NCBI GenBank assembly: GCA_036478295.1 | Contig: JAZGDW010000131.1 | Span: 1-16,169 of the forward strand | Source: Candidatus Krumholzibacteriia bacterium | GTDB lineage: Bacteria; Krumholzibacteriota; Krumholzibacteriia; WVZY01 | Reading direction: 5' to 3' | DNA length: 16,169 bases | In this document: positions 1 through 14,952 of the stretch, in pieces | Position numbering within the stretch: the stretch's first letter is position 1 | How the letters are laid out: each line of letters starts with the position of its first letter | Translations under genes and position numbers: made by a program | Notes under the pieces: model-generated | Seen by the model: the letters and a program-made list of their open reading frames with translations, nothing else | Told to the model about the DNA's origin: nothing | The model's database searches: none

Positions 1-147
1 GCGCAGCCTGCGAGCACGGACGGGCTGTTCGCTGACAGGACCCGCCGTGGTCGTCGGGTGATCCTCGCTCGTTCCCGCGAACGGGTCCGCAGCCAATCCA
101 ACGACGTACCGCGCAAAGACACGAACCTGGAGCGGAGGGGAGAGCAT

Positions 148-372
148 ATGGCAAACAGGGTTGTAATATTCGGCAAGGACACCTGACACTACACGACGGC
201 GGCCCGTGAGGATTACGCCAACAAAGGCTACGAAGTCGAGTACCAAAATGTGGAGAAGGACAGCGGCGCCCTCGATAAGATGCTCAAGCACTCGGAGGGG
301 GGACGCGATGTGCCAGTCATTGTGGAGGGTTCTGACGTCACCATCGGTTTCGGCGGCACCTGAGCGGTGTAA
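148..372 (+). CDS. Glutaredoxin-like selenoprotein with two selenocysteines (resembles the UXX-star selenoprotein families), 74 aa
   Basis: GGAGG SD at 134-138 and ATG at 148. Reading TGA as U gives MANRVVIFGKDTUHYTTAAREDYANKGYEVEYQNVEKDSGALDKMLKHSEGGRDVPVIVEGSDVTIGFGGTUAV*. U13 (184-186) sits at the Grx CPYC first-Cys position; cis-Pro-type VPVI and IGF motifs are present; U72 (361-363) precedes TAA at 370-372; hairpins follow both TGAs. Confidence 0.9.
192..208 (+). promoter_or_regulatory. Candidate in-frame SECIS for the first UGA (184-186)
   Basis: CACGACGGCGGCCCGTG can fold as ACGG/CCGT or CACG/CGTG with a G-containing apical loop about 13-14 nt after the UGA. The stem is short and somewhat close to the UGA. 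Confidence 0.45.
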
Positions 373-376
373 CCCC

Positions 377-393
377 TCTCACCGGTGGTGAGA
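377..393 (+). promoter_or_regulatory. Candidate SECIS for the second UGA (361-363), located in the 3' UTR
   Basis: Perfect 7-bp stem TCTCACC/GGTGAGA with a GGT loop starting 20 nt after the UGA, matching bacterial SECIS geometry. No U-tract follows directly. Confidence 0.7.
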
Positions 394-500
394 CTCAATC
401 TTCTTTAGAATCAACTGTTCGTTCTCTTTTGATGCACCGACGCTTGAACCGGTGCAGCTTATTTGCAAGGAACTTAATGAATTACGTATCGGCGCCCAAT

Positions 501-620
501 TGTGGAAAAATACCCATGAGAAATTGTGCGCATCGTCTTAATTGTTTCAGTCACAATAGGTTAAACGTTATCCACAACTGGTGCTCTTTTATCAACACCT
601 ATGCTTTGCCCTGTGGATAA
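501..620. promoter_or_regulatory. Distal DnaA-box cluster
   Basis: TGTGGAAAA 501-509, TTATCCACA 568-576 (perfect), TTATCAACA 589-597 and TGTGGATAA 612-620 (perfect, reverse) in an AT-rich gap between convergent genes. Confidence 0.75.
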
Positions 621-652
621 CTCGCTTGCCGTCAGCCGGGGCCAGGCCGAAC

Positions 653-694
653 GAAAAAGGGCTTCCGGCCCCCTAGGGGGCGAAAGCCCTTTTC
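653..694. terminator. Probable bidirectional intrinsic terminator
   Basis: AAAAGGGCTT...GCCCCC-TA-GGGGGC...AAGCCCTTTT inverted repeat with A/T tracts on both sides, about 28 nt downstream of the bactofilin stop. Confidence 0.75.
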
Positions 695-721
695 TTGCTA
701 TCGGATCGCGCGAGAGCCAGT

Positions 722-1162
722 TTACTTGGCCGCTTGTTTTTCGGGTTCCTTTTTGATCCAATCGGTGTTCTGGGACACCGGTTTTGAGATCGAGGCGCCT
801 TGTGCCGCCTGGGAACCCATCCTGCACGCCCCTTCAAAGAACACACCCTCGTCGATCACGAGACGTACGGTCGAGATGTCACCTTCGACGTGAGAGCCCG
901 TTTGCAGTTCGATTTTGTTCGTAGCCTTGATGTTGCCCACGAGCTTGCCGCCGATCACAGCGTTCTTCACTGTGATATCGGCTTTGACAACGCCGGTCTT
1001 GCCGATGATCAGCGTCTCCGGGCACTTGACCTCGCCCTCAAAATCGCCGTCGATACGCAGCGTCCCCTTGATCTCGATGTTTCCTTTGAACTTGCATCCT
1101 GGTCCGAGAATCGAATTCAGGTTGCCTTCGCCACCGATGCTGTCGCCTTCCTTGCCAAACAT
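722..1162 (-). CDS. Bactofilin (polymer-forming cytoskeletal protein, CcmA family)
   Basis: Typical beta-helix repeats SILGPGCKFKGNI...LRIDGDFEGEV...IIGKTGVVKADI...VEGDIST..LVIDEGVFFEGACRM; N-terminal MFGK motif; AGGAGG SD. Confidence 0.93.
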   Translation of the reverse strand: MFGKEGDSIGGEGNLNSILGPGCKFKGNIEIKGTLRIDGDFEGEVKCPETLIIGKTGVVKADITVKNAVIGGKLVGNIKATNKIELQTGSHVEGDISTVRLVIDEGVFFEGACRMGSQAAQGASISKPVSQNTDWIKKEPEKQAAK

Positions 1163-1207
1163 ACGCGTTCCTCCTTAACTTGAATCCCGAGCTAGACGTG
1201 AAGCGAA

Positions 1208-1235
1208 ATTATACACAAAACTGAACCGAGTTAAA
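1208..1235 (-). promoter_or_regulatory. Putative sigma70 promoter for the bactofilin gene, overlapped by a DnaA box
   Basis: Minus strand TTTAAC-16nt-TATAAT (-10 at 1208-1213); TTATACACA at 1209-1217 fits TTWTNCACA. Confidence 0.5.
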
Positions 1236-1261
1236 GTGCCTTTTTCTCTCGCCGGAGAACT

Positions 1262-2062
1262 CTAGTTGAGCAAATAGTTTCTAGGGTCAACAGGCACTCC
1301 GTTTTTCTTGACTTCGAAATGAAGATGTGGTGCCGAACTCTTACCGGTATCTCCGACGAAGGCGATTGTCTGCCCGCGTACGACCCGATCGCCTTCCTGG
1401 ACAATGTTACGCGAGTTGTGGCCGTAAAGCGTCTGGATTCCGAAACCGTGATCGATGGCGACCTGGTATCCGAATGTTTCATCCCAGCCGTTGGAAACCA
1501 CAATGCCCTCGGCAGAAGTTTGTACGGGTGTATTGCGGCGAGCCGCAATATCCATGCCAGGGTGGTAGAGGTCACTTTTCTCGCCGCCGGTTGTGTAGAA
1601 TTCTCTTGTTACGTAACCTTTTAGCGGCCACAACGACGGTATGGCCTTGAGCAGCAGCTGTTGCTCTGTGCGCTCTGCCTCTGATATCCCCCCCGCCTGG
1701 GAGATTGCGGGTGAATAGACAACTGGCGATAAATTTGCCACCAGCATGCTGTCTTCGATGGAGAGTCCGACGCCTAGCATTTTCTTGATCTGGATGCCCG
1801 TGGTCTGCAGGCGTACGAGCTCGGTGCGTAACGAATCGATCTGTGCGTTACGGGTTCGAAGTTGTTTGTTTTCGGCGGCGAGTCCCGCAGCCTGGTATGC
1901 TTCGACCAGCGCCTTGCCGTAGGTGGCCACGAAGAAAGTCCCCGTCAAGAGAGACAGGCTGACGAGCACGGTCAACGCGACCAGCATTCGATACGAAACA
2001 CGGAAGTTCCGCACATTGGAATCATCGTGTGGTACGACAATGATCGAGAGATACTTTCGCAT
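1262..2062 (-). CDS. Membrane-anchored M23 family metallo-endopeptidase
   Basis: Short N-terminal segment, TM helix, coiled coil, then an M23 domain with HxxxD (HPGMD) and HxH (HLH) Zn motifs. Starts 1 nt after the parB stop. Confidence 0.92.
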   Translation of the reverse strand: MRKYLSIIVVPHDDSNVRNFRVSYRMLVALTVLVSLSLLTGTFFVATYGKALVEAYQAAGLAAENKQLRTRNAQIDSLRTELVRLQTTGIQIKKMLGVGLSIEDSMLVANLSPVVYSPAISQAGGISEAERTEQQLLLKAIPSLWPLKGYVTREFYTTGGEKSDLYHPGMDIAARRNTPVQTSAEGIVVSNGWDETFGYQVAIDHGFGIQTLYGHNSRNIVQEGDRVVRGQTIAFVGDTGKSSAPHLHFEVKKNGVPVDPRNYLLN

Positions 2063-2063
2063 A

Positions 2064-2924
2064 TTATCGGGGCAGAGGAATGTGCATCAGCTCCACAAGG
2101 CGCTCGAAATCCTCGTGACTGTAAAACTCGATGGTCAACTTCCCTTTTCCGCCGCGCTTTTCTTCCAGTCGCACGCGCGTCGAAAGATGTCTGGCGATCG
2201 CGTTCTCCAGAAATGAAATGTGCGGCGACTTTTCTGTCTCAATCTTGGCGGAATGTTTTGGCCGGCGCCGCTCACCTGTTTCCGTCTCGACCTGGCGTAC
2301 GGTCAGGTTCTTTTTCTGAATGCGCTCGGCCATCGCCAGCTGCTCCGTTTTCGTCGGCAGTGACAAGAGCGCCCGGGCGTGTCCTTCGCTGAGCTTCCCC
2401 TCAGCCAGCATCGACCGGATCTCTTCGGGCAGGCTCAACAGGCGGAGCGTGTTCGCCACCGAACTCCGGTCCCTGGCAACCATCCTGGCCAGCTCGTTCT
2501 GGGACAAGCCGAATGACGCTATCAGCGAACGGTATGCCCCGGCGACTTCAATGGGATTCAGGTCTTCCCGTTGCAAGTTTTCTACCAACGCGAGACGAAG
2601 TGCGTCGACTTCCTCCACCGGCTTGACAACAACCGGCATTTGTTGAACGCCGGCGAGCCTGGCCGCCTGCAGGCGTCGCTCGCCCATGATGAGCTCATAG
2701 CGCATCCCGTTCTTGCGCACCACCACGGGCTGGAGCACTCCGTCGTTGCGTATGCTCTCCGAAAGTGCCTTGAGTTTTTCTTCGTCGAACCGCTTGCGGG
2801 GTTGGTAGGGGTTGGCGCTGATCTCCTCAACCGGGATGTGCGTCACCTGGCCCTCGGTCGCGGCTTTCTTGATCGTCTGCGGTATCAATGCTTCCAGTCC
2901 TCGGCCCAGTACTTTCCTTGCCAC
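2064..2924 (-). CDS. parB: Chromosome partitioning protein ParB (Spo0J)
   Basis: N-terminal LGRGL ParA-interaction peptide, NPYQPRKRF, GERRLQAA CTPase motif, ENLQREDL, HTH RSSVANTLRLL; GAGGTGAT SD before the GTG. Confidence 0.97.
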   Translation of the reverse strand: MARKVLGRGLEALIPQTIKKAATEGQVTHIPVEEISANPYQPRKRFDEEKLKALSESIRNDGVLQPVVVRKNGMRYELIMGERRLQAARLAGVQQMPVVVKPVEEVDALRLALVENLQREDLNPIEVAGAYRSLIASFGLSQNELARMVARDRSSVANTLRLLSLPEEIRSMLAEGKLSEGHARALLSLPTKTEQLAMAERIQKKNLTVRQVETETGERRRPKHSAKIETEKSPHISFLENAIARHLSTRVRLEEKRGGKGKLTIEFYSHEDFERLVELMHIPLPR

Positions 2925-3678
2925 TCTGGATCACCTCTCTCGCCAGTTTCAGATACGTTTGTGCCCCCTGGCATTCGGCATCGTACAGCAAGATGGGTTT
3001 GCCAAAACTCGGGGATTCACTCAGCTTGACGTTTCTCGGAATGATGGTGTCGTAGACCTTGTCGCCAAAATAGGAGATGGTCTCGTCGACCACCTGCTTG
3101 GCCAGTTTGAGCCGCCGGTCGAACATGGTCAGCAAGACACCCTCGATATCGAGGGACGGATTCAGGTTGTTTTGTACAAGTTTAACGGTTTCAAGTAGTT
3201 GCCCCAGCCCTTCCAACGCGTAATACTCGCACTGCAGGGGAATGAGGATCGAGTCCGCTGCGGTCAGTGTGTTGAGGGTGAGCAAGCCCAGGCTGGGCGG
3301 AGAATCCAAAAAAATGTAGTCGAAGCGATCTCTGATTTTCTCGAGGGCCCTTTTCAGCCGGAATTCACGCCGGTCAAGCGTGACCAGCTCGATCTCTGCT
3401 CCCGTAAGTTGTTCATTTGCGGGTAGTAATGACAGATACTCCAGCGCGGTGTCCATGATGGCAATGTCGATCAGATTCGGATCGAGCAGTACCTCGTAGA
3501 TCGAGATCTCGACCCCGTGCTTGTCGACGCCGAGCCCCGACACCGCGTTGGCCTGCGGGTCCATATCGACGAGGAGGGTGCGCTTTTCGGCGGCGGCCAG
3601 GCTGGCGCAGAGGTTCACCGCCGTCGTGGTCTTGCCCACACCGCCCTTCTGGTTCGCAATGGCAATGATCTTTCCCAC
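2827..3678 (-). CDS. parA: Chromosome partitioning ATPase ParA (Soj); start at 3678 or 3687
   Basis: Deviant Walker A NQKGGVGKTT, DMDPQAN, DSPPSLG, PLQCEYYALEG, IPRNVKLSESPSFG; adjacent to parB. Confidence 0.96.
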   Translation of the reverse strand: MGKIIAIANQKGGVGKTTTAVNLCASLAAAEKRTLLVDMDPQANAVSGLGVDKHGVEISIYEVLLDPNLIDIAIMDTALEYLSLLPANEQLTGAEIELVTLDRREFRLKRALEKIRDRFDYIFLDSPPSLGLLTLNTLTAADSILIPLQCEYYALEGLGQLLETVKLVQNNLNPSLDIEGVLLTMFDRRLKLAKQVVDETISYFGDKVYDTIIPRNVKLSESPSFGKPILLYDAECQGAQTYLKLAREVIQSGKESTGPRTGSIDTADDQESRDRGPGDAHPG

Positions 3679-3709
3679 GTTGTGCACCGGACTTTAGAAA
3701 CCTATGGTC

Positions 3710-3738
3710 ATTAAAACTAATAACTTCTTATATAACAA
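3710..3738 (-). promoter_or_regulatory. Putative sigma70 promoter for the parA operon
   Basis: Minus strand TTGTTA-17nt-TTTAAT in an AT-rich gap just upstream of parA. Confidence 0.45.
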
Positions 3739-3745
3739 CTAGTTA

Positions 3746-5059
3746 CTAGGGTGCTGCCTGCAACCACGGGGTGATCCAGGCCTGGACTTTTGTCGGGTCG
3801 AAGCTGGGATCCCAGGCATCCAGTATGGTCGCTTTGATCGAGGTGGAGTCCGTCGCTCCCCACCAGTTGTTCCGCACGTCGAGCGCGAAATTGCCGACGA
3901 AATTAGGCTGAAGAACCAGGTTGAAACGGGGCGGCGTTGCCTTGCCAAACTGGTTGCCGCTCAAGTTGTTGTTGGAAATCACAGGGTACAAGGTCCAGCT
4001 TCTCACCGGCGAGGGATTACCTAAACTTACGCCAGGAATGAAGTTACGTGATATTGCGTTGTTGCTGATCGTAATCGGAAGCAACGCCCCCGGATCGTCC
4101 AGAATCAGCGAGATCCCCGCTTCGCCGTTGGGGGTCGTCAGATCTCCATTGAAGGTTATGCTGTTCCCCTGGATGGTGATCGACGCCGGCACCGTGGCTA
4201 TATTGGGCATTTCAACCCTGATACCACTGGACTGGTTGCTGGTGATCGAGGAGTTCATCACCGACAGCGCCCCGGTCGATTCGTGGAGGATTGCCGCGGC
4301 GCTGCACAGGGTAATGGTGCATCCGTCGAGCGTGGCGACCGAAGGGCTGGTCGTGTGCAGGGCATTCTTGGCGTGAGAGATCTCGGTAAAGCGCAGGTCC
4401 ACTTGGGGTGGGGGTCCGCTCGGCACCGCGCTGATTCCCTTCCAGTCGCCCGGCGTGGCGGTCCGCGAGTTCGGCCGTATGATGACCGGTGCGCCCCGCG
4501 CGCCGGCTGCCACAAGACTGCCGCCAACCTGAAAGTCAAGGCCTGGTTTATCTATATAAACCTCAACACCTTGTGCGATCGTCAGGTTGGCCTGGCTGCC
4601 CACGGCGAACGTGGCACCCGCCGGCCGCACGATGTACGGAGACCGGGTGAGCACCCAGGTGAAAACCCCGGTCACGTCGGCCGTGACAACCGTTCCTATT
4701 TTGAGGGTTTGCGTAACAGTCCGTTGCAGGCCCTTGTCGTCGGATACGGTGACGGTAATCAGGTCTTCGCCGACTGTGGACGGCGACTCCCAGGTAAAGG
4801 AGGTCCCCGTACCTGAGGGACGAGGGCCGGATGGATTTCCACCCCGGGTAACCTCCCAGGCAACGGTCACCGGATCGCCATCGGGGTCATCGACGACGGC
4901 CGTGAACGTAACCGGTGCCACGGTTTCTACTGCGAACTTGCCAAACGTGAACTGGATGGTTGGCGCCCGGTTGGCGGGTGGTGCGATCGGGGCTTCATCG
5001 GAGCCGCATCCGGCTAGGATGAGCCCCAAAATGATGGATAACGCTATTAAATACCGGAT
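3746..5059 (-). CDS. Putative lipoprotein with an N-terminal Ig/PKD-like domain and a right-handed beta-helix region; probable ATC start at 5059
   Basis: Starting at ATC 5059 gives MRYLIALSIILGLILAG-C (lipobox LAGC). Then NRAPTI..DDPDGDPVTVAW..ITVTVSDDKG, Asn-rich repeats (ITSNQSSGI, ISNNAISRN, ISNNNLSGN) and a C-terminal NNWWG motif. Confidence 0.75.
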   Translation of the reverse strand: MRYLIALSIILGLILAGCGSDEAPIAPPANRAPTIQFTFGKFAVETVAPVTFTAVVDDPDGDPVTVAWEVTRGGNPSGPRPSGTGTSFTWESPSTVGEDLITVTVSDDKGLQRTVTQTLKIGTVVTADVTGVFTWVLTRSPYIVRPAGATFAVGSQANLTIAQGVEVYIDKPGLDFQVGGSLVAAGARGAPVIIRPNSRTATPGDWKGISAVPSGPPPQVDLRFTEISHAKNALHTTSPSVATLDGCTITLCSAAAILHESTGALSVMNSSITSNQSSGIRVEMPNIATVPASITIQGNSITFNGDLTTPNGEAGISLILDDPGALLPITISNNAISRNFIPGVSLGNPSPVRSWTLYPVISNNNLSGNQFGKATPPRFNLVLQPNFVGNFALDVRNNWWGATDSTSIKATILDAWDPSFDPTKVQAWITPWLQAAP

Positions 5060-5172
5060 GTTGCACCCCTTTTGTTTCCGCTCCGCTGTGGGGTTCTCGA
5101 ATTACCTGGAACATTAATCACTGCCACCGGAACATGGCAAGCTTTTTTGAGTGGCGGTCGAATTATTTGCAG

Positions 5173-5188
5173 TGTTCCACGTGAAACG
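5173..5188. promoter_or_regulatory. parS site 1
   Basis: TGTTCCACGTGAAACG, 15/16 match to the parS consensus TGTTNCACGTGAAACA. Confidence 0.9.
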
Positions 5189-5268
5189 ACGGGGCCGCCC
5201 GCCGGACGCTACCCGGGCCACCGAGCTGTGGGACTGCAGAGGGTTTTCGAAAAGAGAGCCCGCTGGAA

Positions 5269-5284
5269 CGTTTCACGTGAAACG
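5269..5284. promoter_or_regulatory. parS site 2
   Basis: Perfect 16-bp palindrome CGTTTCACGTGAAACG with the parS core. Confidence 0.92.
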
Positions 5285-5310
5285 CACACGCTCTACGGGT
5301 CTGGTCAGGA

Positions 5311-5961
5311 TCACAGTGATTTGTGGTAGAGAACGAAGGTCCCGGCGTCTGTGGTCCGCTGAGCCGTGAGTGTGAGAGACCGGCCGAGGGTGGTGTCTAC
5401 GGTCCGGCCCGGTCCCCGTCGCAGGGTGCCAAAGCACCCGTTGTCGACCAGGAGCGCTTCGACCGCCGCCGCGACCCTCCCGGGCGGGGCAACGGCCAAC
5501 ATGACCGCCAGGTCGAACGTGTTCCGGTACGCGTCCCGGGTGGGGAGCTCGTTGAGATCGGCTTCGACCACCTGGATACCCGACAGGCCGATCCGCCGCA
5601 CCACCCGTTCGAGAAAGACCGCGCGGCGCCTCTTCCGTTCGACCAGAACCAGCTCCAGCCCGGGTGCCAGCAGTCGCCAGACGACACCCGGAAACCCCGC
5701 ACCCGAACCGATGTCGGCCACACGCCACGATTCGGTGTCGACGGTACATGTTTTGACCACAAGGTCCCAAAAATCAATGGATTGGCGGATGAGACCGGCC
5801 AGTACTGTCGGGGTGTCTCGCCTGGAAACCAATCCGAGATCGGGGTTCCAGTCGAGGATCTCATGGACATAGACATGAAGCGTGGCGAGGTCCAGCCGGC
5901 CGCTCAGATCGGAGAGGGTGCTCAGTACGCGGTCGGTATCATCGTGGCTGGGAATAGGCAT
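5311..5961 (-). CDS. rsmG: 16S rRNA m7G527 methyltransferase RsmG/GidB homolog, divergent
   Basis: SAM motif DIGSGAGFPG and LVERKRRRAVFL; directly after mnmG. Likely ATG at 5961 overlaps the mnmG end by 23 nt. Confidence 0.85.
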   Translation of the reverse strand: MPIPSHDDTDRVLSTLSDLSGRLDLATLHVYVHEILDWNPDLGLVSRRDTPTVLAGLIRQSIDFWDLVVKTCTVDTESWRVADIGSGAGFPGVVWRLLAPGLELVLVERKRRRAVFLERVVRRIGLSGIQVVEADLNELPTRDAYRNTFDLAVMLAVAPPGRVAAAVEALLVDNGCFGTLRRGPGRTVDTTLGRSLTLTAQRTTDAGTFVLYHKSL

Positions 5962-7837
5962 GAGTCTCGCCGGTTGCCTGCCCACTGCGCTTGCGCTCGA
6001 GATGGACAACGAGGATCGACAAGTCCGAGGCCCGTACCCCGGAGATACGGGATGCCTGCCCGACGGTCTCGGGCCGCCGGGCCTGGAGTTTCTGGCGGGC
6101 TTCGGTACTCAAGCCCTGGATGCGCCCGTAGGGAAAATCCAGTGGGATCGTCTTGCGTTCCATCGAACGGACAGACTCGATATCGCGCTCCTGCCGTTCG
6201 ATATAACCGATGTACTTGACCGCGCATTCCACATGGTTATCGAGACCCGTGGGGATATTCGTATCCGCAATCCAACGCCTCAAATGGTGGAATCTCACCT
6301 CGGGGCGCTTGAGCACCTGGAGCAGGGTGGCGGGTTTGTTGACCGGCTCGAGGCCCTCGTTTTCGAAGTGCCGGTTGCCGAGTTCGGTCGGAAAAACGGT
6401 GTTTTCCATGTTTTTCACGAGACTTCCGACCTTGTCTATCCGGCGCTGTACGATCTCCCAGGCGGCTGCAGGTACCAGCCCCAGACCCACGCCGTATTTC
6501 ATCAGGCGTTCGTCCGCGTTGTCCTGGCGCAGGAGCAGCCGGAACTCGGCCCGGGACGTGAACATCCGGTAGGGCTCATCGATCTCTTTGGTCGTAAGAT
6601 CGTCGATCAGCACGCCGATATAAGCTTCGTCGCGTCCCAGGATAAAAGGCTCCGCTCCGCGCATGGCCAGGACCGCGTTCAATCCCGCCACGAACCCCTG
6701 CGCGGCGGCCTCCTCGTAACCCGAGGTTCCGTTGACCTGCCCGGCGAAATACAACCGCTCGACATACTTGGACTCGAGCGTCCTTTTCAGCTGTTCGGGT
6801 GGAAAGAAGTCGTACTCGACAGCGTATCCCGGGCGCGCGATGACCGCGGTGTCTAGCCCCGGAATCGCTTGCAGGATATCGTGTTGGACATCCACCGGGA
6901 GACTGGTCGAAATGCCATTCAGATACAATTCCGGATGCTCACGTCCTTCGGGCTCGATGAAGATCTGGTGGCGGATCTTGTCTGGGAACCGGACGACTTT
7001 GTCCTCGATCGACGGACAGTAGCGCGTACCGATGCCGTCGATGTCGCCGCGGTACATCGGTGCGCGATCGAGGTTGCGGCGAATCAGGTCATGGACCGCC
7101 GGGTTGGTTTGCGTAAGATAGCACATCACCTGCGGCTGCGTGATGGAACGCGTCCGGTAGGAAAAGGGTGTGGGCACGGCGTCCCCCGGCTGGGGTTCGA
7201 AGCGGCCGAGGTCCACCGAGTTGCGCAATACCCGCGGTGGGGTCCCCGTCTTCAGACGCCCCATCCGAAAGCCACAGGCACGCAGTGACTCCGAAAGGCG
7301 GGTGGTCTCGGGCTCCCCTTCACGACCCCCACCGACTTTTCGCTGGCCGATATGCATGAGCCCCTTGAGAAAAGTCCCCGTGGTCATCACACAGGCGGTA
7401 CCCCCGAGCTGGGTCCCGTTGCTCAACTTAACTCCTTGAAAACAATTACGTTCAATTGTTATACTCGCGACTTCCGCTTCGATGATTTCAAGGTTTTCTT
7501 GATTTTCAACGGTATATCGCATCGTCTGGCTGTAATGATCCTTGTCTACCTGGGCCCGCGGCGACCACACAGCCGGCCCCTTGGCCCGGTTGAGCATCCG
7601 AAACTGAATGCCGTTCCGATCAGTCGCGCGCCCCATCTCCCCTCCCAGCGCATCCAGTTCCTTGACCAGGTGGCCCTTGGCCAGTCCGCCGACGGCCGGG
7701 TTGCAGGGCATGTAGCCGATGCGGCACGACTGCAGCGTTAGCATGGCCGTCTTCAGGCCCATGCGTGCCGACAGCAACGCCGCCTCGCAGCCGGCGTGCC
7801 CGCCACCGATGACAATGAGATCGTAGTTCGTACTCAC
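5939..7837 (-). CDS. mnmG: tRNA uridine-5-carboxymethylaminomethyl(34) synthesis enzyme MnmG (GidA)
   Basis: VIGGGHAGCEAA, CNPAVGGLAKG, RLKTGTPPR, RYCPSIEDK, AGQVNGTSGYEEAAAQG, PYRMFTSRAEFRL. Confidence 0.98.
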   Translation of the reverse strand: MSTNYDLIVIGGGHAGCEAALLSARMGLKTAMLTLQSCRIGYMPCNPAVGGLAKGHLVKELDALGGEMGRATDRNGIQFRMLNRAKGPAVWSPRAQVDKDHYSQTMRYTVENQENLEIIEAEVASITIERNCFQGVKLSNGTQLGGTACVMTTGTFLKGLMHIGQRKVGGGREGEPETTRLSESLRACGFRMGRLKTGTPPRVLRNSVDLGRFEPQPGDAVPTPFSYRTRSITQPQVMCYLTQTNPAVHDLIRRNLDRAPMYRGDIDGIGTRYCPSIEDKVVRFPDKIRHQIFIEPEGREHPELYLNGISTSLPVDVQHDILQAIPGLDTAVIARPGYAVEYDFFPPEQLKRTLESKYVERLYFAGQVNGTSGYEEAAAQGFVAGLNAVLAMRGAEPFILGRDEAYIGVLIDDLTTKEIDEPYRMFTSRAEFRLLLRQDNADERLMKYGVGLGLVPAAAWEIVQRRIDKVGSLVKNMENTVFPTELGNRHFENEGLEPVNKPATLLQVLKRPEVRFHHLRRWIADTNIPTGLDNHVECAVKYIGYIERQERDIESVRSMERKTIPLDFPYGRIQGLSTEARQKLQARRPETVGQASRISGVRASDLSILVVHLERKRSGQATGETHAYSQPR

Positions 7838-7857
7838 GGTTTCATTCCCTTATTCAT

Positions 7858-7958
7858 GCGCCGGCGGCCCGAATCGCTCGGCAGCCACGGGGTTGTGCTG
7901 TGTGGAGCGGTTCATTCTTCACCGGCACGCGCCGCTTGGCGACTCGGGCCGCCGGCAC
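7858..7958 (-). repeat. Long inverted repeat / mRNA hairpin between mnmE and mnmG
   Basis: Arms 7858-7877 and 7939-7958 are 20-bp complements with two mismatches, both G-U pairs on the - strand. Confidence 0.75.
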
Positions 7959-7962
7959 GCCG

Positions 7963-9354
7963 CTACTTGCCGATGCAAAAACGTGAGAAGATTCGGTCGA
8001 GCAAGTCATCGCTGTAGCGTTTTCCCGTGGCTGATTCGTAGAACTGCAGCGCCTCCCGAGCGTCCAGCGCCAGTATCTCAAGGGGTGCGCGTTCTTCGAA
8101 CGAGCGCTCTAGCACCGACAGCTGCTCTCTTGCCTTCCCAAGTGTGGAGGCCAGCCGCGCGTTCAAAACCACCCTCTCCCGGGCGATCCAGCTTAGGTGA
8201 TCGCGCCCCGCGCATTCAACCAGTGTTTTCTTCAAGAGACCCATGCCGCTTCCGGTTTCGACCGATGTCCCGACGATTCGTCGTTCCGGGTGCTGCGCCT
8301 GCAGCATTTCGAACGTGATCTCCTGCGGCAGGTCCGTCTTGCTGAGCACGAGGATCGAGCGTTCAGGGTCGAGGGTCTGCATGATCGGCTCGATGTCGTC
8401 GGGCAGCGGCTCCGCGGCATCCACCACAAAGACGACGATGTCCGCTTCCTCGACCGCCGCCCTGGCCAGCCCGACGCCGATACTCTCGATGCGGTCCTCG
8501 GTGCCCCGCAGTCCCGCCGTGTCGTGGAGCATGAACAGCAGGCCTTCAAGCACGATGGCCTCGCGCAGCACGTCGCGCGTGGTACCGGGGATTTCCGTAA
8601 CGATGGCGCGGCTCTCTCCGACCAGATGGTTGAACAAACTGCTCTTGCCGACGTTCACCGGCCCCGCGATGGCAACACGATACCCTTCGCGAAAGGGTCT
8701 GCTAAACGCGGCGCCCGCGAGCAATTCGTCGAGTACAATGCCGTGTTTTTTCGCCAGCTCGACCGATGCCTCCACGTCGAGCGTGTCGATGCCGTCCTCG
8801 ATAAAATCGATGTTGGCCTCGATGAGGCTAAGGAGATCGAGCAGCTCGCCGGCCAGCGTATTTATCCGGTCCGAGAGCCCGCCCGCGAGTTGCTCTTGCG
8901 CAACCTGCTGCTGCAGCTCGCTGCGTGCATGTATGAGATCGGCCACCGCTTCCGCCTGGATAAGATCCAGCTTGCCGTTGAGAAACGCCCGTTTGGTGAA
9001 CTCGCCGGCCTCCGCCGGCCGGGCGCCCGTGGAGTACAGCAGGTTCAGTATCCTGGAAACGAGGGCGGCGTTGCCGTGACAGCTGATCTCCACGGTATCC
9101 TGCCCGGTGTAGGAATGGGGGCCTCGCATGACCGCACACATCACTTCGTCCATCACCTCGCTGCCATGGACCAGGTACCCGTGATAGATGCGGTGGTGTT
9201 CGAACGCGGCGCCGTTCTTTCCAGCGCGATTCGACGAGTAGACTTTTCTTACAATGTCGAGTGTATCCGCACCGGACACTCGAATGACCGCGATGCCGGA
9301 TTGCCCCGCCGGTGTCGAGAGCGCGGCGATGGTATCCTGGTTCCCGCCGTGCAT
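7963..9354 (-). CDS. mnmE: tRNA modification GTPase MnmE (TrmE)
   Basis: DTIAALSTP, GEFTKRAFLNGKLDL, GPVNVGKSS, IPGTTRD, DTAG, C-terminal FCIGK. The ATG at 9354 follows the jag stop; the ORF-track start at 9441 lies inside jag. Confidence 0.97.
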   Translation of the reverse strand: MHGGNQDTIAALSTPAGQSGIAVIRVSGADTLDIVRKVYSSNRAGKNGAAFEHHRIYHGYLVHGSEVMDEVMCAVMRGPHSYTGQDTVEISCHGNAALVSRILNLLYSTGARPAEAGEFTKRAFLNGKLDLIQAEAVADLIHARSELQQQVAQEQLAGGLSDRINTLAGELLDLLSLIEANIDFIEDGIDTLDVEASVELAKKHGIVLDELLAGAAFSRPFREGYRVAIAGPVNVGKSSLFNHLVGESRAIVTEIPGTTRDVLREAIVLEGLLFMLHDTAGLRGTEDRIESIGVGLARAAVEEADIVVFVVDAAEPLPDDIEPIMQTLDPERSILVLSKTDLPQEITFEMLQAQHPERRIVGTSVETGSGMGLLKKTLVECAGRDHLSWIARERVVLNARLASTLGKAREQLSVLERSFEERAPLEILALDAREALQFYESATGKRYSDDLLDRIFSRFCIGK

Positions 9355-9361
9355 GGTGCTG

Positions 9362-10039
9362 TCAGGACGTGTTTCCGGTTTTTTCCGAAAACTCGCTGCC
9401 CTGTGGAGTGATGACCACTTTTCTGAGTAGTCCGTCACCAATAGTGTACGTGGTGACGTCGTTGTGGTCGGAGATGGCCAGGTGGATGATACGGCGATCC
9501 GATGCCTTCAGTGGTTCGAAATCAAAATCCTTGCCCGTCTTGCGAACACGCTCGGCAAACTTGCGGGCGCGCTCGATGAGGAGCCGGTGCTTGCGCTTCA
9601 CGTAGCCACCGACGTCGAGGGTAACCTTGCTGTGCTCGCCGATGCGGCTCGTGAAAATCCGGTTGACCACGTGCTGCAGCGAGCTCAAGGTCTCGCCCCG
9701 GCGGCCGATGAGAAGCCCGTCCAGGCTCGTCGTGCTGACGTTGATGAACGTGGTGTCCGTCATCTCTTCGATGTTAAGCTCGTATTCGACGCCCATCAGC
9801 GACAGCAGCTTGTTGATAATTTCTTTTAGCACCACGATATGATTGCCCGCGCGCTTCGCCTCGCGAAGGGCCACGCGGATAGTCACCGATTTTGACCCAA
9901 AGAGCCCGCTCAGAAATCCCTTGTTGCTGCCCTCGAGTATCTCGATGTCGACGTCCTCGGGCCTAGCACCCAGCTCACGCAGTGCTTTTTGCAGCGCTTG
10001 CTCGATGGTTTTTCCAGAGCTCTCGATCGATCGCGTCAT
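9362..10039 (-). CDS. jag: RNA-binding protein Jag/KhpB (EloR)
   Basis: Jag_N domain (GKTIEQALQKAL, KGFLSGLFG), KH domain (LIGRRGETL), R3H domain (DRRIIH); downstream of yidC. Confidence 0.95.
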   Translation of the reverse strand: MTRSIESSGKTIEQALQKALRELGARPEDVDIEILEGSNKGFLSGLFGSKSVTIRVALREAKRAGNHIVVLKEIINKLLSLMGVEYELNIEEMTDTTFINVSTTSLDGLLIGRRGETLSSLQHVVNRIFTSRIGEHSKVTLDVGGYVKRKHRLLIERARKFAERVRKTGKDFDFEPLKASDRRIIHLAISDHNDVTTYTIGDGLLRKVVITPQGSEFSEKTGNTS

Positions 10040-10041
10040 CG

Positions 10042-11895
10042 TTACCCTTTCTTTGCTTTCGATTTCAGGGGTATTCTTTTTGCCGGGCGTTTGGCCAGCG
10101 TGTTCTTGGGTTTTTCCTCGTCGGCCTTTTTCTTTTCATCGTCGTCGGCACCCTTGTTGATGTAATACTGCTGGGCTACCGACAAGACGGTGTTGACCAG
10201 CCAGTACAGCACCAACCCGGACGGCATTCTGTAGAAGAGAAAGGTAAATACAATGGGCATCATGTATGTCATGGCCTTGGGCTGCGTCATCGTAGAAGAC
10301 GGGCCCGCGATAGACCCACCGATTTTCGACTGCAGCAGCATGCCCACACCCATCAGTATGGGAAGCACGCTGAAGGCGCTACCGATTACCGGTAGGCTAA
10401 AGGGCAATTCAAATAGCACGTCTTGCCGCGACAGGTCGTCCATCCAACCGAAGAACGGCGCGCGCCTGAGCTCAATGGTGTTGCGCAGCACGTTGAACAG
10501 GGCCAGAAACACGGGCATCTGCAACACCATGGGTAGACACCCGCCCAGCGGATTGACCCCGCCCTCTTTGTAGAGGCGCATTGTTTCCTTGCTGAGTTTT
10601 TGCTTGTCGTCCTTGTATTTTTCCTTGATCGCCGCGATCTTCGGCTGCAGCGCCTGCATATCGCGCATGGACTTGAAGCTCTTGTGCGTCAGCCGGTAGA
10701 AGAGAACCTTGGTAAAAATCGATATGATGAGAATGACGATTCCGTAGTTGGGAATGAACTTGTAGAGAGCAAGCAGGCTCCACAGGATTGCCCAGCTGAC
10801 CGGCTTGAAGATCTTTAGGGTATCGAAACCGATGTCGACGTTCTTCTCGAGGCTGCCGCGGTTCATGTCCTTGAGTAGTTCGTAGTCCAGCGGTCCCATG
10901 TAGACGTCGATGGCCTGGTCCACCCTTCCCCCGCGCTCGGCGGCGGCCAGCCGGATTGACGTCGTCATGAACTCTTGTTTATCGCTCGAGATTTCCACCT
11001 CTGCGCCGATCGGTTCCAGCGGGAGAAGGATGGCGGTGAAGTATTTCGTTTTCAGGGCCGCCCAGTGCAGGACCCCCGAAAACTCTTCCGTAAAATCCCC
11101 CCGCTTTTTCTTGTGGAATTCGTCCCCCAGACGGATATTGGCTCGAAACGAGGAGTAATCATCGCTGCGGTCCGGCTCGGTTGCCACGAGGCCCGGGCCC
11201 ATGCTCCACTCCACCTGCCGCACGAAGGGATAGTCCTGCGCCGTATAGCGCACGCCGCTGCGGAAGACATAACTATCCGGTGTAAATGTATAGTAGCGCT
11301 CGATACGGCGTCCGTTTTCAGCTTCCGCCCGGAAGACAATCGTTTTCTCCCCCTTGCCGGGATCGAGCCGGATCTCAGTGCCGCCGGCAATCGCCTCGCG
11401 CCGCCCTGGCAAATAGGGGTCAAACCTCACCCCGCCCAGCCGTAGAGCCTCGTCCTCGCCAGCCAGGCGCACGGCCAGGGCACCGCCGTCATCACGCGCC
11501 GCGATAAGCTCCACGGGCTCGCCGTCGGTTTCGTACTCCAAAAGTCGAACGGAAACAATTTCCGCACCGGCGGTGGACAACGTGATGTGGTACAGCGGGG
11601 TTGTGACACTGATTGTGGCGGCGCCGACCGTGGCGGCACGCGGCAGCTCGCCGGATCCGATGGTTTCCTCGACGGCGGTTGGCTGCTGGCTTTCCTCGAC
11701 GGCAAGCGGTTGGGTGGTCTCCCTCGCTTTGCCGGCTTCGGCGGCGGGTGTGTCGACCTTTTGTTCTGCCTGGCGGGCCAACTCAGATTGCCGTCTCAGC
11801 TCGGCTTCACGCTGGCGCGGCGCGTTGTAGAACATCTGGTAGCCCACAATGAGTATCGTGGACAGGAGAAAAGCAAGCAGAAGGCGGCGTTCCAG
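10042..11895 (-). CDS. yidC: Membrane protein insertase YidC (long periplasmic-domain type); probable CTG start at 11895
   Basis: NYGIVIL, MQALQPKI, NPLGGCLPMVLQMP, PSGLVLYWLVN. The frame stays open upstream of the tracked start, giving MERRLLLAFLLSTILIVGY (TM1), with GGGAG 7 nt before the CTG. Confidence 0.95.
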   Translation of the reverse strand: MERRLLLAFLLSTILIVGYQMFYNAPRQREAELRRQSELARQAEQKVDTPAAEAGKARETTQPLAVEESQQPTAVEETIGSGELPRAATVGAATISVTTPLYHITLSTAGAEIVSVRLLEYETDGEPVELIAARDDGGALAVRLAGEDEALRLGGVRFDPYLPGRREAIAGGTEIRLDPGKGEKTIVFRAEAENGRRIERYYTFTPDSYVFRSGVRYTAQDYPFVRQVEWSMGPGLVATEPDRSDDYSSFRANIRLGDEFHKKKRGDFTEEFSGVLHWAALKTKYFTAILLPLEPIGAEVEISSDKQEFMTTSIRLAAAERGGRVDQAIDVYMGPLDYELLKDMNRGSLEKNVDIGFDTLKIFKPVSWAILWSLLALYKFIPNYGIVILIISIFTKVLFYRLTHKSFKSMRDMQALQPKIAAIKEKYKDDKQKLSKETMRLYKEGGVNPLGGCLPMVLQMPVFLALFNVLRNTIELRRAPFFGWMDDLSRQDVLFELPFSLPVIGSAFSVLPILMGVGMLLQSKIGGSIAGPSSTMTQPKAMTYMMPIVFTFLFYRMPSGLVLYWLVNTVLSVAQQYYINKGADDDEKKKADEEKPKNTLAKRPAKRIPLKSKAKKG

Positions 11896-11910
11896 GTCAA
11901 TGCTCCCGCG

Positions 11911-12138
11911 TTAGAGGTGCTCCACCGGATCCGGTCCCCCCTCGTGCCACGGGTGGCAGCGAGAGATCCGGATAATCGTGCGACCGCTTCCACGCCAAGC
12001 GCCATGCTTGGCGATGGCCTGCGCGGCGTACTGCGAGCAGCTAGGATAAAATCGACAGCTCTTGGGGAGAAAAGGGGATACTATCTTCTGGTACGCAGCG
12101 ACCGCTGCAAGTAGTAGTCTGGCGAATTTCGTCATCAT
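11911..12138 (-). CDS. yidD: Membrane protein insertion efficiency factor YidD (start 12138 or 12135)
   Basis: YQKIVSP..CRFYPSCSQYA..AIAKHG..RISRCHPW..GGPDPV. Confidence 0.95.
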   Translation of the reverse strand: MMTKFARLLLAAVAAYQKIVSPFLPKSCRFYPSCSQYAAQAIAKHGAWRGSGRTIIRISRCHPWHEGGPDPVEHL

Positions 12139-12156
12139 TAAAAGGTGCAAAGATAA

Positions 12157-12513
12157 TTACGACTCTGCGTCGTGGCGCAGCAGACCCGCCCGCGCGAACT
12201 GCCCCTCCAATTCGGCGAGCAGTTCTTGATAACTTGCATTGAATATCCCGGTCCGCGCGACGAGAACAATCCAGGGGTTGTCGGTCAGCCGACCGGCAGT
12301 CTGCCTGGCCGCCTCGCGCAGCAGCCGTTTGGCCCGGCTGCGCTTTACCGCATTCCCGACCCGCCTGCTGGCGACGAAACCGAAGTGCGTCTCGTCCGCC
12401 GCTTCACCGGGGTGATAATAGAAAACAATCGCGCACTTGCCTTCGATTTTCCTGCCGCTGTTGTAGACTTCCCGAAACTGTGCCGGTTTTTGCAGGATCC
12501 GTAACACCATCAT
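12157..12513 (-). CDS. rnpA: Ribonuclease P protein component
   Basis: FGFVASRRVGNAVKRSRAKRLLRE (RNR-type motif); located between rpmH and yidD. Confidence 0.93.
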   Translation of the reverse strand: MMVLRILQKPAQFREVYNSGRKIEGKCAIVFYYHPGEAADETHFGFVASRRVGNAVKRSRAKRLLREAARQTAGRLTDNPWIVLVARTGIFNASYQELLAELEGQFARAGLLRHDAES

Positions 12514-12540
12514 TCTACCCGCCGGTAACGGGCAACCCGG

Positions 12541-12675
12541 TCAGACCGTGAGGAACTTGCGGCCCTTCTTGCGACGCCGCTTCAGCACCAGACGGCCGGC
12601 CTTGGTCCGCATACGAGCGCGAAAACCATGAACCCTGGCCCGACGTTGGTTTTTGGGTTGAAAAGTTCGCTTCAT
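12541..12675 (-). CDS. rpmH: 50S ribosomal protein L34, 44 aa (not in the ORF track)
   Basis: Manual translation [50 protein letters not shown] upstream. Confidence 0.98.
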
Positions 12676-12772
12676 CGTCTCTTCTCCGGGAAATCAACAG
12701 TAGAAAGTGCTATAAAATCAATACGTTAGCCCAAGAGGGCCACCGAGGCGCCACTCTGTCTTCAAATAATTG

Positions 12773-12801
12773 AAGGTACCCGATGGTGCCCCCAAAGTCA
12801 A
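12773..12801 (-). promoter_or_regulatory. Putative sigma70 promoter for the rpmH operon
   Basis: Minus strand TTGACT-17nt-TACCTT. Confidence 0.6.
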
Positions 12802-12874
12802 GCCAATTGTCTCCCCGAATAATCCACGGGCCAAAAGTCGATAACTGCTTGTTACTCAATCTGTTGGGGAATGC

Positions 12875-13106
12875 TGTGGGTAACTGTATTTTGCCCTTGA
12901 ACCCCTGCGGCTGTTTCTGCTAGCTTCAACAACGCTCAATCGAGTGTCATCTTCATTTTACACTTTTTTCCTTACACCTAGAGAAAACCCGCATCTTCGG
13001 AGAGACTTGTGAATAACCTTTCGCTACTCGCCGTTTGCTTTACCACAAGTTGTTATTTATTAACGAGTTATCGGTTTATCCCCAGTTGTGGATAAACCGT
13101 GGGTAA
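12875..13106. promoter_or_regulatory. DnaA-box cluster upstream of dnaA, with a putative dnaA promoter
   Basis: TGTGGGTAA 12875-12883, TGTGAATAA 13008-13016, TTTACCACA 13039-13047, TTATCCCCA 13076-13084, TGTGGATAA 13087-13095 (perfect), CGTGGGTAA 13098-13106. Candidate promoter TTGAAC(12897)-18nt-TAGCTT(12921) with TGn. Confidence 0.8.
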
Positions 13107-13235
13107 CAAACGGGTTCCCGCTTTCCCCTGAGCGGGTCCCCAGAAGTTGACCGAGACGGACCCACCGTCATTGGCGGCACTTATGCGTGACGTCTCAAGA
13201 TTTTCGACGCTCAGAAACCGAGGAAGGGTAAGGGT

Positions 13236-14597
13236 ATGTCCATCTCCCCGAACGACGGAGGTTACGACAGGATCTGGTCCGAGTTTCTCACGCGGGTCAG
13301 CACTATGGTTACCAAGCAGACCCTCGAGACGTGGTTCAAGCCCATGCGCCTCTCTTCCATCGAGAACAAACGAATTGGCATCGAATGTCCCAGCAAGTTC
13401 TTCATGGATTGGGTCGCCGAACACCACAAGGACAAGATCCGTTACGTGCTCAAGGACGTTCTTGAGTATGAACCGGCAGAGGTCTTTTTTGCCAATGGTA
13501 ATAATTCGCCTGACGACTTTCTGAGCCGCCGGCCGGAAATCGTGCGCGCCGCTACGGTCAAAAAGAAAGGCGTCAACGGCAGCGACCAACTCAATCCAAA
13601 ATACGTCTTCGACGAATTCGTCGCCGGCGCCAACAGTCGCATGACCTACGCCGCGTGCCTCGCCGTGGCAGAGAAACCCGGGGCTGTTTACAATCCTCTC
13701 TTCATCTACGGCGGTGTCGGTCTCGGCAAGACCCACCTCATGCAGGCCATCGGCCACCACGTCCTGAGCCACAACGATCGTCTTCGCATTCACTACAGCT
13801 CTGCCGAGATGTTCATGAACGAGCTCATCACGGCCATCCGCCAGGGTAAGAGCCACGAGTTTCGTGAGAAGTACCGTAACGTCGATGTTCTCTTGATCGA
13901 CGACGTTCAGTTCCTCGCCGGCAAGGAAAGTACACAGGAAGAGTTTTTTCACACCTTCAACGCTTTGCACGGTTCCAACCGGCAGATCGTCGTTACCAGC
14001 GACCGCCCTCCGAAGGAGATCCCCACTCTCGAGGAGCGGTTGGTTTCCCGCTTTGAATGGGGCCTCATATCGGATATCTCCACTCCCGACTACGAAACCC
14101 GTGTGGCCATTCTGCGAAAAAAAGTTGAGAAGGAGGATGTCCATATTCCAGACAATGTCCTTTGCTTTATCGCTGAAAATGTGACGAGTAACATTCGGGA
14201 GCTCGAGGGTAGTCTCGTCAAACTCCTCGTACACGCCAGCGTCTACAGCACCGACATCACGATTGAGGTGGCGAGAGAGGTGTTGAAAGAATTTATTAAT
14301 CATTTGCCCAAGAAGATAAATATCGCCATCATCCAGAAAGTTGTCGCGCAGTATTTCCAAGTGCCCGTGGACGCCATGAAATCAAAAGTGCGTACGGCCG
14401 CCTACGCCTACCCGCGCCAGGTCGCTATCTATCTCGCCCGCGAGATCACCCACTGCTCGCTGACGCAGATCGGGCAACGTTTTGGTGGTCGGGATCACAC
14501 CACGGTTATTCATGCCTGCCACAAGATCGCGGACAAGAGCGAGACCGATGTCTCGCTCAAGGCGACCCTGGAACAACTAAAAAAGGAACTCACCTGA
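13236..14597 (+). CDS. dnaA: Chromosomal replication initiator DnaA
   Basis: LNPKYVFDEFV, YNPLFIYGGVGLGKTHL, LLIDDVQF, QEEFFHTFN, RLVSRFEWGL, NIRELEG, FGGRDHTTVIHA. Confidence 0.99.
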   Translation: MSISPNDGGYDRIWSEFLTRVSTMVTKQTLETWFKPMRLSSIENKRIGIECPSKFFMDWVAEHHKDKIRYVLKDVLEYEPAEVFFANGNNSPDDFLSRRPEIVRAATVKKKGVNGSDQLNPKYVFDEFVAGANSRMTYAACLAVAEKPGAVYNPLFIYGGVGLGKTHLMQAIGHHVLSHNDRLRIHYSSAEMFMNELITAIRQGKSHEFREKYRNVDVLLIDDVQFLAGKESTQEEFFHTFNALHGSNRQIVVTSDRPPKEIPTLEERLVSRFEWGLISDISTPDYETRVAILRKKVEKEDVHIPDNVLCFIAENVTSNIRELEGSLVKLLVHASVYSTDITIEVAREVLKEFINHLPKKINIAIIQKVVAQYFQVPVDAMKSKVRTAAYAYPRQVAIYLAREITHCSLTQIGQRFGGRDHTTVIHACHKIADKSETDVSLKATLEQLKKELT

Positions 14598-14815
14598 AAG
14601 TTACCCAGAGACCTTGACAACTCATGTGGAAGGACTGTTGGCCGGGTTAGGGCTGTGGACAGGTCCGCTTTTTTCAACAGCAAACAAAGAAGGAATAAAC
14701 ACACGTACTGTGGTCAAAGTGCCTGCTACCAGAAGATGAAGCGGAAGTTACTCACATATCAACAGTCCCTACTACTACTACTCTTTATTTAGTTAACGTA
14801 GTAATAGTAATAAGC
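14598..14815. other. Probable oriC unwinding region: degenerate DnaA boxes, tandem boxes, GC spacer, DnaA-trios, AT-rich tract
   Basis: Degenerate boxes at 14625, 14654, 14671 and 14709; then TTACTCACA/ATATCAACA (14748-14764), GTCC, (CTA)4 at 14769-14780 and TTTATTTAGTTAA, as in the B. subtilis basal unwinding system. Confidence 0.85.
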
Positions 14816-14875
14816 TGGTAATTCGCACTACCCCGTTGGCCTTAACGCTACACCGATGTAGCATTTACAAAGGAC

Positions 14876-14904
14876 TTGAACGAAAGAGTTTTTTGCCGTA
14901 TACT
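14876..14904 (+). promoter_or_regulatory. Putative sigma70 promoter for dnaN
   Basis: TTGAAC-17nt-TATACT, ending about 50 nt upstream of the dnaN start. Confidence 0.65.
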
Positions 14905-14952
14905 GCTCCGCAATTCACAAGATGAACGAATCACTCTTGAGGAGGTTTGGGC

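Follow-up and report, generated by a model that had tools for sequence, protein, structure and literature searches.

Introduction

The small glutaredoxin cGrx1 of Clostridium oremlandii is described in PMC7642778 as a native selenoprotein, with its catalytic residue at position 13 and a resolving cysteine, Cys16. A diselenide between two selenocysteine (Sec) residues of one chain is reported in a passage of PMC3316567 for Selenoprotein L (SelL). In plant and algal glutaredoxins, a disulfide between the active site and a C-terminal cysteine is reduced by thioredoxin, and in one case GSH cannot reduce it, as set out in a section of PMC13621322. In complexes of DsbA, partner peptides form hydrogen bonds with the cis-Pro loop, presenting a cysteine to the nucleophile (structural sections of PMC8405906). 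Furthermore, a 2026 review (PMC13188914) tabulates NF041114 among predicted selenoproteins under the name 'Distant Grx-like protein 1', giving UxxT as its motif and two as its number of Sec residues; the same review proposes in one passage that the Sec residues of UXX-star proteins may ligate metals or bind unknown substrates, and it names Zhang and Gladyshev 2008 as the origin of the family. No mention of the family was found in the passages of Zhang and Gladyshev 2008 covered here, nor in the main text describing BSepDB.

The locus described here encodes a member of this family, and several of the systems above resemble it in part. Like cGrx1 (PDB 7C10, 7C12), which is among its top fold matches, the protein carries Sec at the catalytic position, residue 13; however, cGrx1 has the motif U-P-H-C with Cys16 and a chain that continues beyond the GF motif, whereas the present protein has Thr16, a short tail and a second Sec. 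The same small fold is found in the NrdH-redoxins and YruB-type small glutaredoxin-like proteins (1H75, 4FIW, 3ZIJ; Z 9.1-9.9), but CxxC is absent here and no ribonucleotide reductase was seen among the neighbours scanned. In Chlamydomonas GRX3, Arabidopsis GRXS16 and GRXS12, the active-site residue bonds with a distant one near the C-terminus and thioredoxin reduces this bond, and by analogy a comparable closure is proposed for the protein described here; in those eukaryotic proteins, however, the closing residue is a cysteine at the start of a retained helix, whereas here a free, Gly-rich tail would supply it in the form of a terminal Sec. Similar to SelL (UxxU), there are two Sec residues per chain; dissimilar from SelL, in which they lie two apart and share one SECIS, they are 59 apart here, each with its own bacterial SECIS-like element.

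A reading frame with two in-frame TGA codons

The window (the whole stretch of DNA analysed, 16,169 nucleotides) corresponds to contig C37 in its entirety; the assembly amounts to 3.5 Mb and is 91% complete. The initial annotation had described a frame led by a Shine-Dalgarno sequence that is continuous only if two TGA codons are read through, and this description was confirmed: a Shine-Dalgarno-like GGAGG (positions 134-138, plus strand) stands with the ATG 9 nt downstream, and TGA codons occupy codon 13 (184-186, plus strand) and codon 72 (361-363, plus strand). When TGA is read as Sec, positions 148-372 of the plus strand translate into a 74-aa protein with U13, U72 and no cysteine, MANRVVIFGKDT-U-HYT...IGFGGT-U-AV-TAA. 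The prediction of a cysteine-free protein with a UxxT motif at the redox position thus held (U13-H-Y-T16), and the frame is absent from the standard list of open reading frames of 60 aa or more, as expected of a gene that ordinary gene callers would miss.

Profile searches assigned the translation to a single family. NF041114 (UXX-star selenoprotein family 1) matched with 112 bits against a cut-off of 72 (E 1.1e-32), as the annotation had proposed in naming the UXX-star glutaredoxin-like families; the match covered positions 1-70 of 70, so that similarity does not end at the first TGA. The parent subfamily NF041212 (89.7 bits vs a cut-off of 66) and Pfam PF00462 (30.4 vs 22.9) were also matched. 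The other UXX-star-type models remained below their cut-offs (family 2, 51.2 vs 100; family 3, 45.8 vs 97; HUGP fusion, 57.9 vs 325), and all ordinary glutaredoxin and NrdH NCBIfam models were far below theirs. A dithiol glutaredoxin or NrdH protein (CxxC or UxxC) was rejected because the residue at +3 is Thr16, there is no CxxC, and the corresponding models are below cut-off. The N-terminal (U/C)xxT motif is present as U13-H-Y-T16, and the C-terminal U-x-x-stop signature as U72-A-V-TAA, with the parsed homologs alike; we take the name UXX-star to denote this C-terminal Sec followed by two residues and the stop. Compared with most members of UXX-star family 1, the only difference is a minor one, His14 in place of Pro.

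Two artefactual origins of the frame were considered and rejected. A chance frame does not agree with the end-to-end match to NF041114 or with the retention of both TGAs in 11 of 11 matches. For an assembly error as the source of the TGAs, a second contig, from a marine sediment run that may not be independent of assembly GCA_036478295.1, spans positions 140-404 with 5 differing letters, none of them listed at either TGA. Altogether, the gene is almost certainly a translated two-Sec member of UXX-star selenoprotein family 1, with a glutaredoxin/NrdH-like fold in the structure model. Because the two-Sec UxxT form is tabulated in PMC13188914, the double-Sec form is known and novelty is low: family and motif are already catalogued, and the gene adds one member. 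The analysis contributes a structure model that has the Sec-bearing tail folded back onto the protein's own active site, and with it a sharper, testable picture of a family without biochemistry in the literature searched.

Conservation of the two selenocysteine codons

Matches over the cut-off were obtained in 11 of 61 genomes (the host and 10 of 12 family-level relatives), and all of them contain two TGAs at the same codons, at protein identities of 61-74% across the 11 genomes; the 7 weaker matches among the 61 genomes contain no stop. It had been proposed that homologs would show Cys or TGA at positions 13 and 72, and this was borne out, with Cys or TGA in column 13 and TGA in column 72. 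The two columns were tallied in 95 database proteins. At column 13, 81 of them have Cys, 7 have Trp and 1 has Val, and 6 lack the position; at column 72, 87 lack the position, their sequences ending with GG[T/S], whereas 7 have Trp, 1 has Arg and none has Cys. The 7 homologs with Trp at both columns are presumably gene calls made under a code in which TGA is read as Trp. The tail is thus lost from the databases, where 87 of 95 homologous entries stop just short of residue 72.

The loci were also read as DNA. In 85 genome loci (4 unparsed, and two pairs being duplicates), 75 were U13/U72, 5 showed U72 only to the parser, and 1 had Sec one residue later. A Cys13 query retrieved 80 loci from metagenomes: 58 C13/U72 and 14 U13/U72 loci, all with a stop three codons after U72, and 8 that were unparsed. 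Sec was therefore present at the tail position in all 153 parsed loci of the 165 examined (in one, one residue later), and Cys in none. Both locus searches are biased by their seed peptides and the Sec13:Cys13 ratio carries no meaning; however, the absence of Cys72 is harder to ascribe to search bias because the first query itself carried Cys72. Residue 13 alternates between Sec and Cys in these sequences, and the tail residue is apparently never Cys. Elsewhere in the protein, T16, V55 and P56 are invariant in a 73-row alignment. The near-invariance of D54 in one alignment was dismissed as a search artefact (pattern RDVPVIVE), as this column varies among the 95 database homologs.

SECIS-like elements downstream of each UGA

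The rules given for a bacterial SECIS (bSECIS) in the relevant section of PMC13188914 are a G in loop positions 1-2, a distance of 16-37 nt past the UGA, and a folding energy of at most -7.5 kcal/mol. The first candidate element lies within the coding sequence (198-219, plus strand) and folds into a stem, an internal loop, a 2-bp stem and a GUGA loop at 206-209, 19 nt past the UGA. Its loop and spacing agree with the bSECIS rules; its energy is -8.4 kcal/mol with flanks and -6.9 kcal/mol alone, the latter missing the limit of -7.5. Little covariation was seen in this element. Codons 19-21 are nevertheless GCC CGT GAG in 11 of 11 orthologs, whereas most other synonymous sites vary. The signature of the element was defined as a pyrimidine-ending Ala codon followed by an Arg codon giving G[G/T], and was counted in genes with Ala19-Arg20: it was present in 79 of 83 Sec13 genes vs 1 of 46 Cys13 genes, and in the metagenome set alone in 13 of 13 Sec13 genes vs 1 of 46 Cys13 genes, counts that include non-independent kin and carry no p-value. 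The Cys13 relatives are a natural control for this element.

The second candidate element is situated just 3' of the stop codon (377-393, plus strand) and is a 7-bp hairpin with a GGU loop, 20 nt past the UGA, at -8.6 kcal/mol, in agreement with all three bSECIS rules. Of 139 distinct loci, 111 have a hairpin conforming to these rules after U72, and its spacing from the UGA is 16-23 nt in every case; the corresponding numbers in 100 shuffles were a mean of 17.6 and a maximum of 29 loci. Furthermore, compensatory changes were found at 5 of 6 consensus pairs among the 11 orthologs. Folding of the whole region against shuffles singled out neither element (z -0.22 to -1.21), and a search of window positions 1-800 against Rfam gave 6 matches at E values of up to 10, none of which approached its gathering score; both elements were detected only through the comparative tests. 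A crude genome-wide scan for TGA, hairpin and motif gave 510 matches, mostly noise, and was dropped. Taken together, these computational data show that each UGA has its own downstream SECIS-like element, one in the coding sequence and one past the stop.

Selenocysteine machinery and use of TGA in the host

A gene of this kind implies that the host carries machinery for Sec, and the components named in the initial annotation were located, with no absence that speaks against the reading. The host has selA (476 bits, cut-off 268), selB (384 bits, cut-off 242), a tRNA-Sec on contig C173, and a 5' fragment of selD that is truncated at a contig end and falls below cut-off (G000:C118:2-229, minus strand). 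This fragment contains an in-frame TGA of its own at the Sec motif ACAG-U-ASK, and the host SelD is probably itself a selenoprotein. The presence of selA is not discriminating, as 56 of 61 relatives carry it whether the selenoprotein gene is present or absent. TGA terminates 355 of 904 long open reading frames in the host genome by a crude count, and is an ordinary stop there. ARAGORN listed no tRNA-Trp, tRNA-Cys or tRNA-Ile in the 91% complete assembly, absences that are most likely assembly gaps.

A second hidden Sec glutaredoxin was observed in the host (G000:C220:10164-10355, minus strand). Its motif, U-Q-F-C, is of the ordinary kind and its chain extends further beyond GF, and it offers an in-genome contrast to the UXX-star form.

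Predicted fold and docking of the tail

The structure was modelled as a monomer with AlphaFold2 on the 73-row alignment, with Cys substituted for Sec. The model has a small glutaredoxin fold with a mean pLDDT of 87.7, and of ~80 in the tail. The best structural matches were BC3987, cGrx1, NrdH and GrxA (Z 9.1-9.9). For cGrx1, 65 residues were aligned at Z 9.8 and rmsd 1.9; this protein is also the best sequence match among solved structures (E 6.5e-4), with its catalytic residue 13 aligned to U13, which places the Sec that starts the U-x-x-T motif at the glutaredoxin nucleophile position. The structural alignments end at model residue 69-70, and the tail G-F-G-G-T-U-A-V-stop (346-372, plus strand) replaces the last helix of ordinary glutaredoxins. 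D54-V55-P56 (307-315, plus strand) is the counterpart of the thioredoxin-fold cis-Pro loop, with a proline that is presumably cis.

By DSSP, the full model contains extra two-residue strands at 54-55, just ahead of Pro56, and at 72-73. When residues 1-70 were folded alone, the 54-55 strand was gone and the remainder was essentially unchanged. Comparison of the two DSSP strings suggests that the tail strand 72-73 pairs with the loop before Pro56. It should be noted that AlphaFold may tend to tuck free tails into grooves, and that docking within a chain and between chains are indistinguishable in a monomer model. It had been proposed that a Gly-rich C-terminal arm could bring U72 to U13; docking of the tail in the model and loss of the strand without the tail are indirectly in favour of this idea. 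The model and the tail-deletion control thus support a U13-U72 diselenide without proving it.

Proposed mechanism and alternatives

On balance, the protein is probably a small thiol/selenol-disulfide oxidoreductase with a tethered resolving residue. SelB and tRNA-Sec would decode each UGA via its own downstream SECIS, and U13, at the glutaredoxin nucleophile position, would attack a target disulfide or an oxidised thiol. Thr16 stands in place of the usual resolving Cys16, and the GGT-U-x-x tail in place of the last helix; the tail would dock on the V55-P56 loop, like substrate peptides in thioredoxin-fold enzymes. U72 would then resolve the mixed intermediate, giving a U13-U72 diselenide, or a selenenylsulfide in the Cys13 relatives; U13 and U72 are all that the chain has available, as there is no further Cys or Sec. 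Recycling would be likeliest by the thioredoxin/thioredoxin reductase system, and a host thioredoxin reductase was found over cut-off. The difficulty of reducing diselenides may speak against fast cycling.

One alternative, which we consider unlikely, is a chelator or carrier of metals or metalloids in which a single ion (such as Hg, Cu or As) would be bound between U13 and U72 with no redox cycling. The passage of PMC13188914 that names the UXX-star Sec residues as possible metal ligands points this way, as do the docked tail of the model, which would join two soft donors, and the fact that U72 is never replaced by Cys; however, the fold, the helix start at U-x-x-T and the invariant V-P loop are redoxin features, and no recurrent metal-resistance neighbour was seen among 137 flanking open reading frames from a pick of 40 loci.

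It is likewise improbable that the protein is a monoselenol redoxin that relies on a low-molecular-weight thiol, which in the host would be bacillithiol, with U72 serving as a protective or regulatory lid or as an inter-chain link and not as a catalytic resolver. Of the two Sec residues, the one in the tail is better conserved (153 of 153 parsed loci), and it costs a dedicated SECIS, both of which argue against such a role, and the docked tail would probably fill the groove needed by a small thiol. On the other hand, bacillithiol synthesis in the host is probable, as a single contig (G000:C127:2252-5556) carries both bshA, matched over cut-off, and a bshC-like gene whose match is below cut-off. 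Precedents also exist: the C-terminal Cys of plant glutaredoxins can hinder glutathione binding, and the function of the disulfide is described as not understood, in a section of PMC13621322, and the C16S variant of cGrx1 forms domain-swapped, disulfide-linked oligomers according to part of PMC7642778. Glutathione synthesis was not established in the 91% complete genome, in which a 45-residue gshB piece and no PF04107 match were found, E. coli-type GshA being outside the search. This gshB (glutathione synthetase) piece (G000:C278:2440-2574) sits where a 2.6-kb contig ends, with an in-frame stop ahead of it, and is a remnant or contamination.

That the gene is no selenoprotein gene, but a pseudogene, an assembly error or part of a genome in which TGA is Trp, is extremely improbable and refuted for practical purposes, since the Trp at both columns in 7 of 95 database homologs, the selD match below cut-off and the lack of a tRNA-Trp by ARAGORN in an incomplete assembly are outweighed by two TGAs kept over 11 genomes at 61-74% protein identity, by a column 13 whose alternative is Cys and not Trp, by the 355 of 904 long open reading frames that TGA ends (crude count), by SECIS signals that track the TGA, and by a selD piece, truncated where its contig stops, whose Sec motif likewise contains an in-frame TGA.

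The oxidoreductase with a tethered resolving residue can be extended to the family as a whole, a generalisation that is plausible and yet falls slightly short of probable: UXX-star family 1 would have traded the last helix and the resolving Cys for a tethered, substrate-mimicking Sec tail that binds the protein's own cis-Pro loop, and would act through a long-range, catalytic U13-U72 diselenide, independently of glutathione, in several bacterial phyla, with Sec strictly needed in the tail and Cys tolerated as the nucleophile. The tethered-diselenide reading was not found in the literature searched, which left out Haft and Tolstoy 2025, where it may be stated. If the diselenide is real and catalytic, Se-Se redox chemistry would gain a compact model in this protein of 74 residues.

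Genomic neighbourhood

In the host's bacterial family the gene stands alone, with a divergent MoxR ATPase gene at 10 of 11 loci and convergent bactofilin and M23 peptidase genes at 9 of 11. The MoxR ATPase gene is not on the host contig, which begins 147 nt upstream of the selenoprotein gene. A Pfam scan covered 137 open reading frames (135 of 141 picked at 40 loci, and 2 from the window), and no conserved operon or reductase partner emerged among them; neighbours were lineage-specific, with ThyX in Acidobacteriota, NDK and HhH-GPD in others, and single occurrences of VKOR, thioredoxin, rubrerythrin and TelA. Clustering by blast of the open reading frames around 142 loci was muddied by antisense frames. 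Altogether, the neighbours differ across phyla and name no substrate. The gene for ThyX (flavin thymidylate synthase) adjoins the selenoprotein gene, in varying orientation, at L026, L044, L059, L087 and L106, which are several Acidobacteriota and metagenome loci; this adjacency is absent from the host's family.

Within the window, no sigma-70-like promoter was found in positions 1-760. Positions 722-16062 hold an origin-region gene cluster, in which bactofilin and the M23 peptidase were identified by Pfam; the remaining genes were named from their translations, and we take them to be parB, parA, rsmG, mnmG, mnmE, jag, yidC, yidD, rnpA, rpmH, dnaA and dnaN. Terminator-like hairpins for both strands lie at 657-691, between the converging selenoprotein and bactofilin genes. 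The gap between these two genes also contains DnaA-box-like 9-mers at 501, 568 and 612, two of them perfect; this cluster (501-620) is ~12.5 kb from dnaA, upstream of which two more such boxes occur at 13008 and 13087, and the boxes at 501-620 may belong to a split replication origin or to a site bound by DnaA.
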